Positions 15,599-26,165 of a stretch of 64,000 bases of DNA are shown here, piece by piece; the first letter of the stretch is position 1; each line of letters opens with the position of its first letter. The translations under genes were made by a program, and so were the position numbers. Under the pieces are notes generated by a model, which saw nothing but the letters and a program-made list of their open reading frames with translations, did not search any database and was not told the DNA's origin. The stretch is taken from the NCBI RefSeq assembly GCF_000026545.1, contig NC_011601.1, one strand, 5' to 3'. This DNA is from Escherichia coli O127:H6 str. E2348/69. Lineage in GTDB: Bacteria > Pseudomonadota > Gammaproteobacteria > Enterobacterales > Enterobacteriaceae.

Positions 15599-15614
15599 CT
15601 CTTAGAAGGGCGTC

Positions 15615-15932
<318 letters not shown>

Positions 15933-16679: not shown

Positions 16680-16802
16680 TACTTCTCCGGTTAGTAAGAA
16701 AAAACGGAAGGAATGCTACCACTGCGAATTTAACCACTTACTGACATGGCTCACGATGTCACATATTGCACAGGCGCTGAGACTGATGACAAACACAGGA
16801 TT

Positions 16803-16895
16803 GCCTGATGCGCTACGCTTACCTGGCCTACCAGATAACTGCAATATATTGAATTTTCAAGATTATGTAGGCGAATAAGGCTTCATTCCGCATCC
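16803..16895. repeat. REP-like palindromic units at the pepE / sor boundary
   Basis: gcctgatgcgctacgcttacctggcctac and gtaggcgaataaggcttcattccgcatccgcc resemble REP consensus. Confidence 0.6.
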
Positions 16896-17059
16896 GCCAT
16901 AAACAATGTGCACTTTGCCACCAATTTGAGCGCCCCTTAAGGCGCTGATGTTTTTTTATCCTTCTCGTGCACATTGTGCCGCTTCTGCAATCAGCCGCAC
17001 ATCAGGTCGCGAAGTTGCCGCGGCGACCAGCCAGCGACATGCAGGGTTAAGTAGCGCGA

Positions 17060-18289
17060 TTAATCATGGGAAATTGCCTCTGCATGGGCGAGCAGGTATT
17101 GCTCCGCCTCACCGGACCAGATCCCCTGATGACGCGCCAGAATCGCCGCCAGTGCTTGATCCTGAATCTGCGTGAGTGACGTCAGCGGCAGGAATTTCCC
17201 GGTATACACCAGCTTTTTGCCGCCGCCGACGGCAGGCAATTCAAGCGTAGTTTCGCCCGCGGCATTCAGCCCAAGAATATGTGTTACCACTTTTGCGGCC
17301 TGCACTTTTTTCTCTTCAATCAATTTGACCGCTGCGCGCATGTCGTCGGTATTGCCGCCTGACGTGCCCACGTAGTGGGTAAATGCATAATGCACATCGT
17401 AGAAATTAATTGGCGCGCTGAAGTGCTTATCCTGCGGTCCGGCGAAGAAATTCAGACAACCATCTGTCGCCAGCAAGGAAGAGGCGAGAGTCACCAGTCC
17501 TTCATTAGGCACAAAGACGAAAATATCATCGAAGCCGTGACCGCCACTCAGTGCCATTAACGTATCAAATGCTGCATCGGCGGCATTGAGATAATGAATC
17601 AGTGTTTGCGGTTCTGATGGATAGTGCTTGCGCGCATAACTCAATTTGTCGTTGTCGGTATCGGTAATGACGAGCAGCGACGGGTTAACGGGTCCATGTA
17701 GCGCATAATCAATCGCCAGCAGCCCCATCGGGCCGGTGCCGCCGAGTATCAGCGTGCGCCCTTGCGGGCGAATCCCCATCGTGTGGTTATAACTACCTTC
17801 CTGAAGATGATAGTTGGCGTTGAACGCGCCAATCACGCAGGAAAGCGGTTCAACCAGCGAGCCTTCAAAATAGGTTTCGCCGTCGTATGCCAGCAGGCAA
17901 TCATGTTCCATGACCTCGTTGGGAATAACCACATGCGTCGCTTCGCCGCCTACCCACGGGAAGGAGTAGCCGGGGCAATCCGGGCGGTCGGGGAGTTGCA
18001 GGTTGGCCTGAATCACATAACGCTGACCCGGCTGGAATTTGTGCTGCCACTTTTTACCCACGGCCAGAATATCGCCGCAAAATTCGTGGCCGATGATGAT
18101 GGGATTGGTCGCCACATCGTCGGGTACTTTTTTATGGTTTTCACCCAGATTGGCCTCTTTCCAGGAAGAGAGGCACAGGCTGTCAGTGACCACCGTTGCG
18201 AGGATTTCATCCTCCTGCATTTCAGGAAGGTCAAAGGTTTCCAGACGCAGGTCACGTTTGCCATAAAGACGCAGAGCTGTTGTTTTCAT
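17060..18289 (-). CDS. sorE: L-sorbose-1-phosphate reductase (zinc-binding dehydrogenase family)
   Basis: Minus ORF 17060..18301; start set at MKTTALRLYG with SD aggtgg; MDR/zinc-ADH-like sequence, about 409 aa, last gene of a sor-type operon. Confidence 0.75.
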   Translation of the reverse strand: MKTTALRLYGKRDLRLETFDLPEMQEDEILATVVTDSLCLSSWKEANLGENHKKVPDDVATNPIIIGHEFCGDILAVGKKWQHKFQPGQRYVIQANLQLPDRPDCPGYSFPWVGGEATHVVIPNEVMEHDCLLAYDGETYFEGSLVEPLSCVIGAFNANYHLQEGSYNHTMGIRPQGRTLILGGTGPMGLLAIDYALHGPVNPSLLVITDTDNDKLSYARKHYPSEPQTLIHYLNAADAAFDTLMALSGGHGFDDIFVFVPNEGLVTLASSLLATDGCLNFFAGPQDKHFSAPINFYDVHYAFTHYVGTSGGNTDDMRAAVKLIEEKKVQAAKVVTHILGLNAAGETTLELPAVGGGKKLVYTGKFLPLTSLTQIQDQALAAILARHQGIWSGEAEQYLLAHAEAISHD

Positions 18290-18340
18290 AAACCACCTCA
18301 TGTTGAGCGATGGCCCCGGCAGTCGTGCCGGGGCGAAGAA

Positions 18341-19195
18341 TCAGGACAGGAAGCCCAGCGCATTGCCGATAATCCCTAAGCCAAACAGGGCGAAAATCAG
18401 CCATACCGGGTTAATTTTTTTGTTGAGCAGACGAACCATCAGTAGCGTCAGACCGAGCGCCAGCAAACCAGGGCAAAGTTGGTCGAGAATGTTCTGCACG
18501 GTCATGGTGACGGTGGAGCCATCGGCGGCATGCGTTTGTGAAACCACCAACGGTACGTTGATTGACGTCCATTTGGTCACCAGCACGCCCATCACAAACA
18601 GTCCGAGAATCGACGCGCCTTCGGTGAGTTTTTGCAGCAAATTACCGCCCATATCGCTGACGATATTCACCCCTTTGCGAAAGCCGAGTTGTAGGCCATA
18701 CCACTTCATCGCCAGACGCACCGCGTTGAAAATAAAGAAAAACAGCAGCGGGCCGAGAATGTTGCCCGAAAGTGCCAGAGATGCGCCGAGCGCGGCGGTA
18801 ATCGGGCGCAGCGTTCCCCAGACCAGTGGATCGCCAACTCCTGCCAATGGTCCCATCAGACCGACTTTGATGCCGTTAATGGTACCGTCATCAATTTCCG
18901 CGCCGTTGGCCCGCGCCTCTTCCATGGCGGCAGTGACGCCGATGACCGGGCCACATACGGCTGGCGTGGTATTGAAGAACACCAGGTGTCGCCTGAGCGC
19001 CGCAACCTGATCCTCTTTTAATGGGTAAAGTCGCTTGATGGCGGGGATCATGTCGTAGCAAAAACCCAGCCCGTGAATACGTTCAAAGTTAAAGGACGCC
19101 TGTTGCAGGTTGGAGCGCAGAAACATGCTCACCAGATCGCTGCGTGTAATTTTTCTCTGTTCCATGATGGCTCCGTTAATCATCAAGTTGGTCAA
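18341..19195 (-). CDS. sorM: PTS mannose/sorbose family EIID component
   Basis: Translation aligns with ManZ-type IID (RSNLQQASFNFERIHGLGFCYDMIPAIKRLYP, GVGDPLVWGTLRP); start may be the internal MEQRK. Confidence 0.85.
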   Translation of the reverse strand: MTNLMINGAIMEQRKITRSDLVSMFLRSNLQQASFNFERIHGLGFCYDMIPAIKRLYPLKEDQVAALRRHLVFFNTTPAVCGPVIGVTAAMEEARANGAEIDDGTINGIKVGLMGPLAGVGDPLVWGTLRPITAALGASLALSGNILGPLLFFFIFNAVRLAMKWYGLQLGFRKGVNIVSDMGGNLLQKLTEGASILGLFVMGVLVTKWTSINVPLVVSQTHAADGSTVTMTVQNILDQLCPGLLALGLTLLMVRLLNKKINPVWLIFALFGLGIIGNALGFLS

Positions 19196-19973
19196 GGGCG
19201 GTGATAGTGGTGGTCTGGGGATGTGGTTCAGCTTTACGCCACTGTGGATTTAACTGGATGTAGAGCAGGGCCATGATCACGCCGACGCCACCGAACGCCA
19301 GCAGACTGAGATCGAGGTAGCCACCTGCGAGGAAACCGAGGAAAAAGAAAGGCATCAAATATTTCACGCCCATCATGCGAAGCACCATGGCGTAACCGAC
19401 CACCACGATAAAACCGCCAGCAATCTGCAGCCCACGGGTCACAAATTCGGGAATGGCGCTCAGCATATTGCTCACCATATCAGCGCTGACGAACAGCGAG
19501 ACAATCAGTGCCGGAATAGCAACGCGCAGTGCCTGCACGCCAAGCGCGGAGACATGCAGAATATCGAGAGTGCGAAACCGTGCTTCTTCCGCTGCTTTAT
19601 CCGCCGCGTGCTGGAACACTACGGTGATGGTACGGGCAAACACCGTCAGCACCTGGCCTGCAGCAGCCACAGGCAACGCGATGGCGATTCCGGTGGCGAT
19701 GCTTTGCTGACCAACGATAACCAGAATGGCGGAGATTATGCTGGCGAGTGCAGAATCCGGAGATTGCGCCGCGCCGACGTTCATCCAGCCGAGAGCTATC
19801 AATTCCAGCGTACCACCGAGCATAATTCCGGTTTTTAAATCACCGAGAATTAAACCAATCACCGTACAGGCAATTAACGGACGATGAGTCTGAAATTCAT
19901 CCAGCACGCTGCCCATTCCGGCAATACAGGAAAAAAGAAATATAGCAATGATTTGTAGGGTACTTATTTCCAT
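19176..19973 (-). CDS. sorA: PTS mannose/sorbose family EIIC component
   Basis: 265-aa polytopic membrane protein MEISTLQIIAIFLF... with ManY-like pattern. Confidence 0.85.
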   Translation of the reverse strand: MEISTLQIIAIFLFSCIAGMGSVLDEFQTHRPLIACTVIGLILGDLKTGIMLGGTLELIALGWMNVGAAQSPDSALASIISAILVIVGQQSIATGIAIALPVAAAGQVLTVFARTITVVFQHAADKAAEEARFRTLDILHVSALGVQALRVAIPALIVSLFVSADMVSNMLSAIPEFVTRGLQIAGGFIVVVGYAMVLRMMGVKYLMPFFFLGFLAGGYLDLSLLAFGGVGVIMALLYIQLNPQWRKAEPHPQTTTITALDQLDD

Positions 19974-20038
19974 AATTTGTCACCTTTTAAGTGTCGTCAT
20001 CCCTGCCTGTTAAAGCATATGTACACAGGCGCTATTAT

Positions 20039-20533
20039 TTAATTTGCGATTAACTGTTCGTTTATTTTGTCGATAATATTGATTGAGGGATCTGACGCTA
20101 CGACGCGTAAATCCAGTATGACGCCAAGATTATTTAACTCATGAAATGCGTTAATATCATCGTCATCTAATGAAACTGCTTTGGTTAACTGTTTCTTACC
20201 AGGACGCCAGGCCATACCGCCAATATTCAGGGTACCTATTTTTACCCCCTGGCGAACCATTGCTAAGGCATCTTGTGGGCGAGTGAAAAGATAAAAAACG
20301 GTTTCGTCCTGATATTGCGGGTTGTGATAAACCGCGACGGCTTTTTCAATATTGACCACGTTAACCTTCATTCCCGGTGGCGCAGCCTGACGCAATAATG
20401 TCCGGCGAACTTCATCGTTATAAACTTCGTCATTGCAGATAATAATGCGTTGGGCGTTAGCCACTTTCGACCAGACGGTAGTGACCTGGCCGTGGATCAG
20501 GCGGTCATCAATGCGGGCGAGCGTAATGTTCAT
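20039..20533 (-). CDS. sorB: PTS mannose/sorbose family EIIB component
   Basis: 164 aa, MNITLARIDDRLIHGQVTT (phospho-His IIB motif). Confidence 0.85.
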   Translation of the reverse strand: MNITLARIDDRLIHGQVTTVWSKVANAQRIIICNDEVYNDEVRRTLLRQAAPPGMKVNVVNIEKAVAVYHNPQYQDETVFYLFTRPQDALAMVRQGVKIGTLNIGGMAWRPGKKQLTKAVSLDDDDINAFHELNNLGVILDLRVVASDPSINIIDKINEQLIAN

Positions 20534-20940
20534 CAGAAATCCTCCTCTGCTGTTGCCACCTGTCTCCAGACGACGCAGGTTTGCTTTGCGATTTGCGTCA
20601 GGTGTTCACACAGTTCATCAACATTCATGCTGTCCTGGTTATCAACCAGTTCGAGCGCCAGCGGCAGAGAAAGGCCGCTGATTACCCGCAGACGAGGATT
20701 GCGCATCGCAAGCATCGCTGCCGCATTCCACGGGCTGCCGCACTGTAAATCCACGGCGATTAGCCACTCGTCATGATTGTGAATGCTCACTAACTTCTCC
20801 AGCTTTGCCACAATGTCTCCGGCGTTCTCGCCGGGCACAAATTCAACGGCCTCGACCCTGGCATCGCCGTACACCATCTGAACCGATTCCAGCATGGCGC
20901 AGGCTAATTTGCCGTGGGCGCAAAAAATGGCATTGACCAT
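20533..20940 (-). CDS. sorF: PTS mannose/sorbose family EIIA component
   Basis: 135 aa, MVNAIFCAHGKLA... (IIA active-site His region); ATGA overlap with sorB. Confidence 0.85.
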   Translation of the reverse strand: MVNAIFCAHGKLACAMLESVQMVYGDARVEAVEFVPGENAGDIVAKLEKLVSIHNHDEWLIAVDLQCGSPWNAAAMLAMRNPRLRVISGLSLPLALELVDNQDSMNVDELCEHLTQIAKQTCVVWRQVATAEEDF

Positions 20941-20949
20941 AAAGCCTCC

Positions 20950-21756
20950 TTAGCCGCGCGTTTTGCCGCCCGCAATGTTAGTGGTTACTCCGGTGATATA
21001 GCTGGCGCGTTCAGACAGCAGATAACAAACAAAATCAGCCACTTCTGCTAATCTTCCGGCGCGCCCAATAGGAATGGCGTTTTTGGTATAGCCTTCACGC
21101 AGCTGCTCGACGGTGATATTGCGCGTCCACGCCAGCGCTTCTTCATATTCCGGCGTGCGCAGTCCTGTTTTTTCCAGAATCCCCGGTGCGATACCGACCA
21201 CACGGATACCGTGCTTACCCAGCTCTTTCGACCAGGAGCGCGTGAAGCTATTGAGCGCGGCTTTGGTCGCGGCGTAACAGCTTTGGCCTTCTGAGCCTTC
21301 CAGCCCACTTTCTGAGGAAACATTCACAATCACGCCATCATGTTGTTTGACCATCTGTCGCGCCACCGCCTGCGACATCAGAAAAACGCCTTTCTGGTTG
21401 ATATTGACCATTTTTTCGAATGCAGCTTCGTTGAGTTCATACTGCCCGGCAGGCGCTTTCTCATCGACCAGCAGACGCGGGAAATTGACCCCGGCGTTGT
21501 TAACCAGACCGTCGATGCGACCAAAACGCTGGATAATTTCTGCTACCGTATGATTTACCTCTTTGGCGCTGGAAATATCGGTCGGCCAGAACTGATAACC
21601 TTTATGGCTTTCATATTGACCATCGCCACCGTGAATATCGACCATCTGTACATTCGCGCCTTGTGCTAATAATTCATCCACAATCGCCAGACCAATACCG
21701 GATGCGCCACCGGTGACAATAATGATTTTATCCTGCAAATTTAACCACGTTTGCAT
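20950..21756 (-). CDS. sorD: Short-chain dehydrogenase/reductase (D-glucitol-6-phosphate dehydrogenase of sor operon)
   Basis: 268 aa; TGGASGIG Rossmann motif and SDR catalytic YxxxK pattern. Confidence 0.8.
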   Translation of the reverse strand: MQTWLNLQDKIIIVTGGASGIGLAIVDELLAQGANVQMVDIHGGDGQYESHKGYQFWPTDISSAKEVNHTVAEIIQRFGRIDGLVNNAGVNFPRLLVDEKAPAGQYELNEAAFEKMVNINQKGVFLMSQAVARQMVKQHDGVIVNVSSESGLEGSEGQSCYAATKAALNSFTRSWSKELGKHGIRVVGIAPGILEKTGLRTPEYEEALAWTRNITVEQLREGYTKNAIPIGRAGRLAEVADFVCYLLSERASYITGVTTNIAGGKTRG

Positions 21757-21825
21757 AACAGACTCCTGATTTTAGATAATAGGTACCCGCCGTAATTTTT
21801 ATTACGGTAAACATCGGGAAGATTT

Positions 21826-22773
21826 TTATTTCAGTAATAGTTCAGCTGTGCTGCTATTCGTTACCAGACAATTAATATATTTTCCACGCAGTGCACCAAC
21901 AATTCCGCTGTATTTTTCTTCGCTCATGGCAATGCCAATGGAATACCGTGCCTGCTTCAATTTATTCATTTCGATAGAGAGTGTTTTTTCGCTCATATTC
22001 GTTTCAACCATTGCGCCGTGAATATCAAAAAAGCGCGAGCAAATATCGCCAGCAACCTGGCGGGCATTCAGGTCGTCACTCTCTTCACCACCATAAAACG
22101 CATGCCAGTTAGCGCCGTCGCGAATGGCCGGTGAGCCAATTCCCACCAGGGCGACATCCAGATTATCCCAGTAGGCAGAGATGGTTTTAAAGTGCTGAGA
22201 CTGCATGATCCCATTACGAATTAATGGGTTATCCAGCAGAGCCGGAAAATCCGCGAGATGAGATTCCCCTTTCAGCTTCGCTGCCGCGCTGTAGGATAAT
22301 GTGTTTACGTGATAGCGGCTTTCGAGTTTACCGGACGGGCCGCCAATAATCGGCACGCAAATTAACTGCCGCGATTGCCCCGCCTGCGGCAAGTTTTCAA
22401 CCAGTGCGCTCACCGCGCGACCCCAGGAAAAACCGACAATATCGCCAGGTTCCAGCAAGCGATCCAGCAGTTGCGCGCCGTGTAACCCCATCATCGCCAG
22501 TTGAGTATCTTCATCCTCATCATTTCCTGACACCACCACAACGTCTTTCAGGCCAAACTTTTGCTTCACTTGCTGCTCCAGCCAGAGATTTCCGTTGTAG
22601 TCATAGTTGATGGCGATGGTGACAATTCCCTGATCGCGGCCTCGTTTAAGCAAGCGGCTGATGGTGGTGCGGTAAATACCCAGTTCGCGCGCAATTTGCG
22701 CCTGCGTCATATCCTGTTCGTAATAGAGTTGGGCAATCTTCACAATCAAACGGATATCGTCACTGTTTTCCAT
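21826..22773 (-). CDS. sorC: SorC-family transcriptional regulator of the sorbose operon
   Basis: ORF 21826..22857; start set at MENSDDIRLIVK with strong SD aggagg; N-terminal HTH (MTQAQIARELGIYRTTISRLL) and sugar-phosphate-binding domain. Confidence 0.8.
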   Translation of the reverse strand: MENSDDIRLIVKIAQLYYEQDMTQAQIARELGIYRTTISRLLKRGRDQGIVTIAINYDYNGNLWLEQQVKQKFGLKDVVVVSGNDEDEDTQLAMMGLHGAQLLDRLLEPGDIVGFSWGRAVSALVENLPQAGQSRQLICVPIIGGPSGKLESRYHVNTLSYSAAAKLKGESHLADFPALLDNPLIRNGIMQSQHFKTISAYWDNLDVALVGIGSPAIRDGANWHAFYGGEESDDLNARQVAGDICSRFFDIHGAMVETNMSEKTLSIEMNKLKQARYSIGIAMSEEKYSGIVGALRGKYINCLVTNSSTAELLLK

Positions 22774-23120
22774 TGCCGCCTCCTGGTTCTGCACATTTGT
22801 GCAAATACGCTTTCTCACCGCTTGATCTGATATAACCCCATCATGATGGCCTTTCAAAGCGATTTTTCACTCTTTGTATGGGGGGAAATAGCGCTTTCTC
22901 TTGCACATTTGTTTCTCTGCGTAGTAGTCATCAGCACAGGTGTGCAGCGATTCGTAATTTGTTGATTATCCTTATTTTGCCAGGCAAATTTGCATCGTAC
23001 TTCCGGAGACACTTTTGTGATAAAAGGCGTGGCAGATCACATTTAATTTCGACGTTGCCGCATAACCCTGTTTTTCCCTGCTAAGAGGTACGGTATATTC
23101 CGCGTTTTACAGGAGAATTT
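22774..23120. promoter_or_regulatory. sorC upstream and rluF promoter region with TGCACA-N2-TGTGCA inverted repeats
   Basis: Inverted repeat tgcacatttgtgca at 22789-22802 and related ttgcacatttgtt near 22900; candidate SorC operators. Confidence 0.35.
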
Positions 23121-23993
23121 ATGCTGCCCGACTCATCAGTCCGTTTAAATAAATACATCAGCGAAAGCGGAATTTGCTCACGCCGCGAAGCGGATCGCTA
23201 TATCGAGCAAGGCAATGTGTTCCTTAATGGCAAGCGAGCCACCATTGGCGATCAGGTGAAACCCGGCGACGTTGTGAAAGTAAACGGTCAGTTGATTGAG
23301 CCTCGGGAATCCGAAGATTTGGTACTTATCGCCCTGAACAAGCCCGTCGGTATTGTCAGCACCACCGAAGATGGCGAGCGCGATAACATTGTCGATTTCG
23401 TTAACCACAGCAAACGCGTGTTCCCGATTGGCCGCCTGGATAAAGATTCCCAGGGGCTGATTTTCCTCACCAATCACGGCGATCTGGTGAATAAGATCCT
23501 CCGTGCGGGTAACGATCATGAGAAAGAGTATCTGGTGACGGTTGATAAACCGATTACCGATGAATTTATTCGTGGTATGGGGGCGGGAGTACCGATCCTC
23601 GGGACGGTAACTAAAAAGTGCAAAGTCAAAAAAGAAGCACCGTTTGTCTTCCGCATTACCCTGGTGCAGGGGCTGAACCGTCAGATTCGTCGCATGTGCG
23701 AGCACTTTGGTTACGAAGTGAAAAAGCTGGAACGTACGCGCATTATGAACGTCAGCTTAAGCGGCATTCCGCTGGGTGAGTGGCGCGATTTAACCGACGA
23801 TGAGTTAATCGATCTCTTTAAGCTCATTGAAAATTCCTCTTCCGAGGCAAAACCTAAAGCGAAGGCCAAACCGAAAACGGTAGGCATCAAACGTCCAGTC
23901 GTTAAGATGGAAAAAACGGCGGAAAAAGGCGGTCGCCCGGCGTCCAACGGTAAGCGTTTTACCTCGCCGGGGCGCAAAAAGAAGGGGCGTTAA
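23121..23993 (+). CDS. rluF: 23S rRNA pseudouridine synthase F (S4 domain plus RluA/RsuA-type catalytic domain)
   Basis: 290 aa; N-terminal S4 RNA-binding region; catalytic Asp region [11 protein letters not shown]; lysine-rich C-terminal tail. Confidence 0.9.
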
Positions 23994-25929: not shown

Positions 25930-26165
25930 GTGGGCGCAGAGCGATACTTCGCTACTATTTTCACCCAGAAGTGCTCCACCACTTGCGAAACGCCCGACTG
26001 CGAACGCTTCTGGTGACAACCCAGGGGATTCAGCCCCTGTAGCCGATGATGAACGTGGCCAGCCGTTCAATCACCTCGGCGATGCACCCCCTCAGGTGTT
26101 ATCACAGGACTGGCTCCTCCAACACCGTTACTTGGGCAACGCGCCTCTTCTGGCCTGCGCTAGCG
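25930..26165 (-). ncRNA. Lysine riboswitch (L box) in the lysC leader
   Basis: Minus-strand leader contains GAAGAGGCGCGTTGCCCAAGTAACGGTGTTGGAGGAGCCAG, the conserved 5' portion of LYS elements; extent approximate. Confidence 0.65.

Follow-up and report, generated by a model that had tools for sequence, protein, structure and literature searches.

Conserved boxes in the sorC leader of Escherichia coli O127:H6 as candidate operators of the SorC regulator

The leader upstream of sorC in Escherichia coli O127:H6 str. E2348/69 contains three related boxes, O1, O2 and O3, and the comparisons reported here indicate that the proximal one, a perfect palindrome situated just ahead of the gene, is very probably the DNA site bound by SorC to control its own operon. 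The leader was analysed as part of a 64 000-nucleotide stretch of contig NC_011601.1, hereafter called the window. SorC, whose crystal structure has been solved, gave its name to a large family of regulators that respond to sugars. A first, sequence-only reading had put the proximal repeat forward as a candidate SorC operator, and this proposal is now strongly supported by comparative evidence, i.e. conservation in orthologous leaders, a link between the box and the recognition helix of the regulator, a likeness to the operator of Bacillus subtilis DeoR and the presence of the boxes in Klebsiella. As to the whole explanation, in which O1, O2 and O3 would all be SorC operators, O1 acting as a roadblock and O2 and O3 as anchors of a loop and/or as sites of activation, we regard it as likely.

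In a recent article (PMC12817954, citing Wohrl et al. 1990), SorC is described as repressing when sorbose is absent and activating when it is present. Three boxes with exact coordinates make this reported dual behaviour directly testable. Recent papers also link the sor operon to high-risk lineages, fitness and virulence, and knowledge of its control region should have some practical value, given these links and the prevalence of the operon. No binding, footprint or transcription-start data for O1–O3 were found in the literature searched; the full-text search, in which the literal boxes were included and which extended neither to the 1990 promoter paper nor to RegPrecise, returned no description of a SorC operator sequence.

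Genomic setting of the leader

The gene sorC (21826–22773, minus strand) is the first of the sorCDFBAME operon and encodes a regulator of 315 amino acids that belongs to the SorC family and presumably binds the boxes. The annotated order on the minus strand is sorC, sorD, sorF, sorB, the genes for EIIC and EIID, and sorE, and the whole is flanked by pepE and by the divergent rluF (23121–23993). The protein is the orthologue of the crystallised SorC of Klebsiella pneumoniae (PDB 2W48; E = 4e-181), from which it differs at only two positions, 47 and 61, within residues 1–62; it also matches B. subtilis DeoR (8R7Y; E = 2.9e-39) and the LsrR structures. PF04198, the sugar-binding domain, was found on its homologues. 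What adjoins the boxes is, in other words, a gene for a SorC-family protein whose N-terminal helix–turn–helix domain is of the DeoR(Bsu)/LsrR type and whose C-terminal domain is PF04198. Since the NCBIfam models for DeoR(Bsu) and LsrR both match it below their cut-offs, SorC should be viewed as a distinct member of the family.

The sor operon and its leader are carried by about half of the complete E. coli genomes (2863 out of 5426). In sor-negative E. coli, the sequence becomes similar to the window only from 23086 onwards, at a distance of 35 bp from the ATG of rluF, and the gene directly facing rluF is pepE; the leader (22774–23085) is thus wholly part of the sor segment, which extends from about 16750 to 23085, with the junction at 23086. 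The sequence upstream of a -10-like hexamer of rluF (23094–23099, recognized by eye) differs between sor-positive and sor-negative strains, and the upstream control of rluF may differ accordingly between them. Because sorC appears to adjoin rluF in most of the other enterobacterial genera sampled, the absence of the operon from K-12-like strains looks like a loss. The suggestion in the sequence-only reading that the boxes could influence the rluF promoter found no support; the box nearest to rluF, O3, lies about 150 bp from the hexamer.

A few other features of the window may be mentioned here. At the other end of the sor segment, between the sorE stop codon and pepE (16901–16984), a hairpin that looks like a terminator (GAGCGCC-CCTTAA-GGCGCTG, then seven T residues) is enclosed by two copies of ACAATGTGCAC in inverted orientation; these copies resemble the box of the sorC leader, but with their GCAC-N3-GTGC core they are one base short. 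RefSeq annotates an IS3-like IS1397 transposase gene with a programmed frameshift at about 14551–15899, between yjbB and pepE, and a lysine riboswitch at about 25961–26157, upstream of lysC.

Boxes of the sorC leader

O1, the proximal box (22789–22804, minus strand), reads TTGCACAAATGTGCAG in the orientation of sorC. It includes a 14-mer at 22790–22803, TGCACATTTGTGCA on the plus strand (in the context ggttcTGCACATTTGTGCAaatacg), which is a perfect 6+2+6 palindrome, its arms TGCACA and TGTGCA being fully complementary and its spacer being TT. The ATG of sorC is the complement of 22771–22773, so that exactly 16 bp (22774–22789) separate it from the 14-mer, and the end of O1 is about 5 bp away from the GGAGG ribosome-binding site. 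The 14-bp inverted repeat that had been placed 16 bp before the sorC start is thereby confirmed in position and in composition.

O2 (22901–22915, minus strand) reads (GAAA)CAAATGTGCAAG in sorC orientation. It was located with a repeat finder as an exact direct repeat of 11 nucleotides, TGCACATTTGT, found at 22790–22800 and again at 22902–22912, i.e. 112 bp upstream of O1; the second copy as a whole is ttgcacatttgtt (22901–22913), and what it repeats is one arm of O1 together with the spacer. The sequence-only reading had described a degenerate copy of the inverted repeat about 110 bp further upstream: the copy does exist, at 112 bp, but it is a conserved half-site and no decayed palindrome. 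That reading counted two boxes and had missed a third one, O3 (22933–22946, minus strand), a distal palindromic box with the sequence AGCACAGGTGTGCA on the plus strand and TGCACACCTGTGCT in sorC orientation. O3 departs from the O1 palindrome by a single mismatch and has a GG spacer; its distance is 143 bp to O1 and 31 bp to O2.

Nor are these repeats the only dyads of the leader, as had been supposed: besides O3, inspection by eye revealed CACTTTTGTG, GCAAATTTGC and TGTGAT-N14-ATCACA. The first of these, at 23010–23019 (no strand assigned), could be a fourth, variant box, in which the GCAC-N4-GTGC core of the boxes is replaced by ACAC-N4-GTGT, a one-base variant that preserves the symmetry. 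It occupies the part of the leader closest to rluF, hardly varies between species, and is contained in a conserved run, CACAAAAGTG, with an information content of 1.83; to call it a SorC site is speculation. The palindrome GCAAATTTGC (22984–22993) is conserved as TGCAAnTTTG. The third dyad (23016–23041) is a nearly invariant block, also at the rluF-proximal end. Its conserved TGTGAT (23036–23041, minus strand) contains a CRP-like TGTGA for which inspection shows a perfect partner at N14 but only a weak one at N6; the centre of this putative CRP site would be some 72 bp away from the point where rluF transcription is inferred to start, and some 210 bp away from the corresponding point for sor. 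The strongly conserved blocks other than the boxes show additional factors to be active in the leader. A reading of the boxes themselves as CRP sites (TGTGA-N6-TCACA) was rejected on geometry, their TGCACA arms being only 2 bp apart.

Other sequence elements were noticed next to the boxes. A direct repeat, AAATA(G)CGCTTTCTC, abuts both O1 and O2 (22803–22817 and 22886–22900); it is present in the leaders of Escherichia and Pseudocitrobacter only, and is found in neither Klebsiella nor Citrobacter. A candidate degenerate half-site, AACAGTGAC, is located 31 bp downstream of O1, within the first sorC codons, where coding constraint confounds any judgement of conservation. GATC (Dam) sites occur at 22823–22826, in the invariant block CAGATCAAG of the predicted start region, and at 23035–23038, in the invariant TGTGATC of the distal block.

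Chance and conservation

One possibility is that the boxes are chance dyads or neutral relics, e.g. of the insertion of sor next to rluF, devoid of any function. When the 347-bp leader was shuffled with its dinucleotides preserved, a lone perfect 6-N2-6 palindrome did turn up in 7.8% of cases, which makes a single palindrome unremarkable by itself, and it also speaks for a relic that the leader up to 23085 is missing from sor-negative E. coli. But a palindrome accompanied by a further copy that differs at no more than one position was never obtained in 20 000 shuffles of the leader. In the 64-kb window, allowing one mismatch at most, only two matches exist, O1 and O3, where the expectation is 0.33 and two or more matches turned up in 4 of 100 shuffles, and in the 264 kb around 31 enterobacterial loci the 41 matches of this quality are all within sorC leaders, with none elsewhere.

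These 31 loci come from a sample of orthologues restricted to one genome per species, in which SorC is 70–99% identical; the genera include Escherichia, Pseudocitrobacter, Citrobacter, Klebsiella, Raoultella and Enterobacter, and furthermore Mangrovibacter, Pantoea, Erwinia, Serratia, Entomohabitans and Kluyvera. Judging from a conserved rluF-proximal block in the alignment, rluF is upstream in the same arrangement in most of them. The leaders have diverged considerably (mean pairwise identity 66%, minimum 45%). The O1 14-mer, which stands at -30 to -34 relative to the start codon, is nonetheless perfect in 30 of the 31 species, and in Serratia it has one mismatch. Its 16 columns, TTGCACAAATGTGCAG in the E. 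coli sequence, carry 1.94–1.97 bits per column, versus a leader mean of 1.12, and form the most conserved block of the leader; by information content O1 ranks in the top 0.6% of 14-column windows. Comparison of sorC leaders between carriers had been named in the sequence-only reading as the way to judge the dyad, and its outcome is favourable, with a dyad that is perfect in 30/31 orthologous leaders and is more conserved than any other stretch of 14 columns in the alignment.

The two upstream boxes are conserved in a different manner. O3 keeps its GCAC-N4-GTGC core in 29/31 species, with a variable spacer and variable outer bases, and the O2 half-site, [AT]TGTGCAA, stands at the same column in 28/31, the other arm varying freely. 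The spacings of 112 and 143 bp are constant among the 31 species except in Kluyvera, whose leader is shorter and has two boxes 101 bp apart. All three boxes are present in K. pneumoniae, the species in which regulation by SorC was described. An O1 that stays invariant across genera whose leaders are 45–66% identical, and a box that recurs in unrelated lineages (see below), are not what chance or neutral decay would leave; on the strength of the conservation we consider chance to be effectively refuted, and give the idea of functionless dyads or relics a negligible probability.

The box follows the recognition helix in distant homologues

A binding protein cannot be named from sequence alone. 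Another transcription factor, global or sugar-specific, could bind them and co-regulate the sor operon, and the leader does hold further conserved blocks, including the CRP-like TGTGA half-site. The distribution of the box outside the enterobacteria bears on this point. A plain homologue search was of little use, the best 120 matches being all enterobacterial, with at least 69% identity, so that independent lineages were not represented. Distant homologues were taken from 1.8 billion representative proteins, chosen by their recognition helix, and their contigs examined.

Three homologues from Bacillales (43–47% identity) have a recognition helix, LGIYRTTISR, identical to that of SorC, and GCACAATTGTGC palindromes are found beside their regulator genes; the neighbouring genes encode an rpiA-like protein and a Gfo/Idh/MocA oxidoreductase, and there is no sorbose PTS. 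Of six distant homologues with a helix of the YRT(T/S)(I/V)(S/T)R type, five are accompanied, in neighbouring intergenic DNA, by boxes that are perfect or have a single mismatch. An example is provided by P0128 (37% identity; locus L056, GCA_900107115.1), which belongs to a glucitol PTS operon and is preceded by perfect TTGCACATATGTGCA boxes in two places, -146 and -34. There is a perfect box at -26 for P0168 (31% identity), a perfect box at -177 with a half-site at -33 for P0123 (49%), and a one-mismatch box before a PTS of the lactose/cellobiose type for P0145 (36%). For P0141 (34%), a perfect box precedes downstream genes for transaldolase/FSA and Fe-ADH, and an additional one-mismatch box precedes an FBPase gene. 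No box was seen in the case of P0164 (L053), which has a YRT-type helix and whose upstream DNA is coding sequence, nor at the locus of P0137, whose helix is HRTTISR. Altogether, the box-bearing homologues (31–49% identity) adjoin five different gene sets, one of which consists of an SDR (adh_short) gene and two transaldolase/FSA genes and is divergently transcribed.

Homologues with other helices gave a different picture: the loci of eleven of them (89.5 kb) contain a single one-mismatch match. In Chloroflexi, where the helix is SRVKVYR, a different palindrome, GTGCAATTGCAC, is found. It is present in one or two copies at -54 to -23 before the regulator gene in three Chloroflexi MAGs (L039, L040 and L045), and its half-site has the letters of the SorC box in the opposite relative orientation.

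The box thus co-varies with the recognition helix across phyla, with 5/6 distant loci and the three Bacillales loci on one side and 1/11 loci with other helices on the other. This is the pattern expected if the helix reads the box, and it is hard to square with binding by another enterobacterial factor, since the box recurs beside same-helix SorC homologues in Firmicute-like lineages and in unrelated operons. A global factor in particular should have left boxes at other places, whereas none occurs elsewhere in the window (64 kb) or in the 264 kb that flank the enterobacterial genes, and the box furthermore resembles the operator of a DeoR protein of the same subfamily as SorC. Action of a different factor therefore appears improbable to us, and binding of the boxes by SorC is the reading we retain. 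The link between box and helix also has a practical side, as it supplies a rule for predicting the regulons of related, uncharacterised regulators of Firmicutes.

Predicted promoter and position of O1

The most consistent prediction of a scan with a position weight matrix (PWM) is a promoter of the form TTGAnA-17-TATATC, seen at the same place in 25/31 species. In the window this putative sor promoter, P1, is at 22829–22857 on the minus strand, with TTGAAA as -35 element (22852–22857), a 17-bp spacer and TATATC as -10 element (22829–22834). The latter is within an invariant block, GGTTATATCAGATCA, but is weak, having a C at the last position. A scan of 22600–23300 for strict sigma-70 consensus promoters and for terminators found neither; because the strict scan gave nothing in the E. 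coli leader, P1 rests on the relaxed matrix and on conservation. From its position, we infer that transcription of sor would start near 22822, which would place O1 at about +20 to +33, the centre of O2 at about -86 and that of O3 at about -117. In some Citrobacter species a further promoter-like site, near -189, also scores well, the conserved block AGAATCA/GATAATC (22960–22970) scoring as its possible -10 element; if this second promoter is real, O3 would sit at its start site.

A box at +16 to +40 from the inferred start is also a feature of three independent homologue loci that have near-consensus promoters. At L055 the promoter is TTGAAA-17-TATAAT and the box lies at about +16 to +29. At L056 (TTGACG-18-TACTAT) the proximal box is at about +27 to +40 and the distal one at about -80; the two boxes (2355–2480 of that locus) are exactly 112 bp apart, with the promoter between them, which is the O1–O2 spacing of E. 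coli in an unrelated leader. At L057 a divergent TTGACA-17-TATACT is followed by a box at about +27 to +40, and the boxes of this locus are 144 bp apart, as compared to 143 bp for O1–O3.

If transcription starts near 22822, O1 would be transcribed, and the palindrome might then work as RNA rather than as DNA, by forming a 7-bp hairpin in the 5' UTR, immediately ahead of the ribosome-binding site, and so tuning the translation of sorC or the stability of its mRNA. Folding does produce a UUGCACA/UGUGCAG hairpin. However, the fold is no better than that of shuffled sequences (z = -0.5; 50 of 200 were equal), the ribosome-binding site stays free, there is no Rfam match at E ≤ 1, and the stem is invariant and so shows no covariation. 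The bases of the spacer, i.e. of the would-be loop, are conserved as well (AAAT or ATAT), which is typical of a protein–DNA site. The motif moreover recurs upstream of the promoter, as O2 and O3, and in other genomes before divergent or downstream operons, and O2, a half-site, is unable to form a hairpin at all. A structured cis-regulatory RNA was hence rejected on fold stability, covariation and family match alike, and a hairpin role for O1 is in our view very improbable, even more so than the binding of a foreign factor.

A model for SorC control of the operon

At this point a mechanism may be sketched, which goes beyond the comparisons themselves. Each 16-bp palindrome (TTGCACA-AW-TGTGCAA) would take one dimer of the N-terminal helix–turn–helix domains. 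O1 would lie between the weak sigma-70 promoter (TTGAAA-17-TATATC) and the ribosome-binding site, where bound SorC could block transcription of sorC and of the rest of sorCDFBAME, resulting in autorepression without sorbose. O3 or O2 may provide the second anchor of the tetramer, closing a loop of 143 or 112 bp, respectively, around the repressed promoter. Without inducer, then, a tetramer would occupy O1 and one of the upstream boxes, blocking and perhaps looping out the promoter, while SorC with its effector bound would activate the weak promoter from O3 and O2. The upstream boxes and the weak -10 element fit a role as both repressor and activator, because a poor -10 is what suits a promoter in need of activation. 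The spacings between boxes in the various loci (84, 101, 112 and 143–144 bp) have no common helical phase, either at 10.5 or at about 11.1 bp per turn, and for this reason we treat looping as conjectural.

One may speculate further that TTGCACA-WW-TGTGCAA is the operator of a whole class of regulators with the YRTTISR helix, spread over Proteobacteria and Firmicutes and attached to ketose and polyol operons, that these work through a tetramer loop, and that sorbose operates an AraC-like switch. We offer this only tentatively. The layout of such a class, with a distal box near -80 and a proximal one at +20 to +40, would reflect a tetramer loop enclosing the promoter, and the enterobacterial O3–O2 pair would let sorbose-bound SorC leave the loop and activate the weak promoter. 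If this were true, an AraC-like switch built on the SorC scaffold would explain the 35-year-old phenotype of a ‘positive and negative regulator’.

Comparison with known regulators

Among the closest known parallels is B. subtilis DeoR, which controls dra-nupC-pdp and belongs to the same subfamily, with a helix–turn–helix domain, a sugar-phosphate-binding domain and a tetrameric state. Structures of B. subtilis DeoR and CggR published in 2024 revealed that proteins of the SorC family bind as tetramers that are dimers of dimers, with one palindromic half-operator per dimer of DNA-binding domains (PMC11229326). The left half-operator of DeoR is TTGAACAAAATTTCAA, and the bases of its TTGAACA are contacted by R34 and R39, among others (PMC11229326). 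It can be set beside the SorC box, TTGCACAAATGTGCAA: both are palindromes of 16 bp, and a comparison by hand of TTGCACAAATGTGCA(A/G) with TTGAACAAAATTTCAA gives 11–12 identical positions out of 16. The contacted arm, TTGAACA in DeoR and TTGCACA in SorC, differs by a single base, and R34 and R39 of DeoR align with R35 and R40 of SorC (ISRPTVSR versus IYRTTISR). The layout of the DeoR operator, in which a complete palindrome is joined by a second copy of one of its arms, is met with again in O3 + O2.

The arrangement differs in other respects. The two half-operators of DeoR are 22 bp apart and overlap the -35 element, whereas O3 and O2 are separated by 31 bp and both precede the predicted promoter, and the sorC leader has, unlike the DeoR operator, a third and perfect box downstream of the predicted start. 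A pair at about 22 bp does not occur in E. coli, the distances being 31 bp (O3–O2), 112 bp (O1–O2) and 143 bp (O1–O3), and in the enterobacterial leaders no partner box is found about 21 bp (two helical turns) from O1; Firmicute homologues have box pairs 19–20 bp apart. Given the absence of such a pair, the enterobacterial layout is best described as a variant, and with O1 partnerless and O3–O2 at 31 bp, the geometry of the solved tetramer may not apply directly. In addition, DeoR is a pure repressor whose gene is outside the operon, while SorC is autoregulated and is reported to be an activator too, and its binding to the boxes is deduced from comparison.

CggR resembles SorC in that its gene stands first in the operon under its control. 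Its operator in the gapA operon, at +32 to +77 (PMC11229326), is downstream of the transcription start and bound by a tetramer, and O1 is predicted to lie in a similar position, which is also the one seen for boxes of L055–L057. CggR has, however, a winged-helix DNA-binding domain and an unrelated operator (CGGGACN6TGTC repeats), with half-sites that are adjacent rather than 112–143 bp apart as in the SorC boxes. Another candidate for comparison is E. coli LsrR, a protein of the SorC/DeoR subfamily from the same organism, autoregulated and with two boxes in the divergent lsrR–lsrA region. These boxes are short and AT-rich (AAAACT, AACAAT), and the recognition helix is TRLKVSR instead of YRTTISR; we rejected them as comparable operators, their sequences being unlike the SorC palindrome.

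In terms of architecture, a likeness is found among regulators of other families. AraC (with araO2, I1 and I2), GalR and E. coli DeoR are oligomeric proteins that form repression loops enclosing the promoter, and in the case of AraC the same protein represses by looping and, with the sugar, activates from upstream sites close to the promoter. These proteins belong to families unrelated to SorC, and the SorC loop is hypothetical, with no single helical phase, but the disposition of sites is alike, with an operator at or downstream of the promoter and auxiliary operators 100–150 bp upstream. Seen next to these systems, the probable operator of the sorC leader is of the ordinary bacterial kind and leaves the general view of bacterial operators unchanged.
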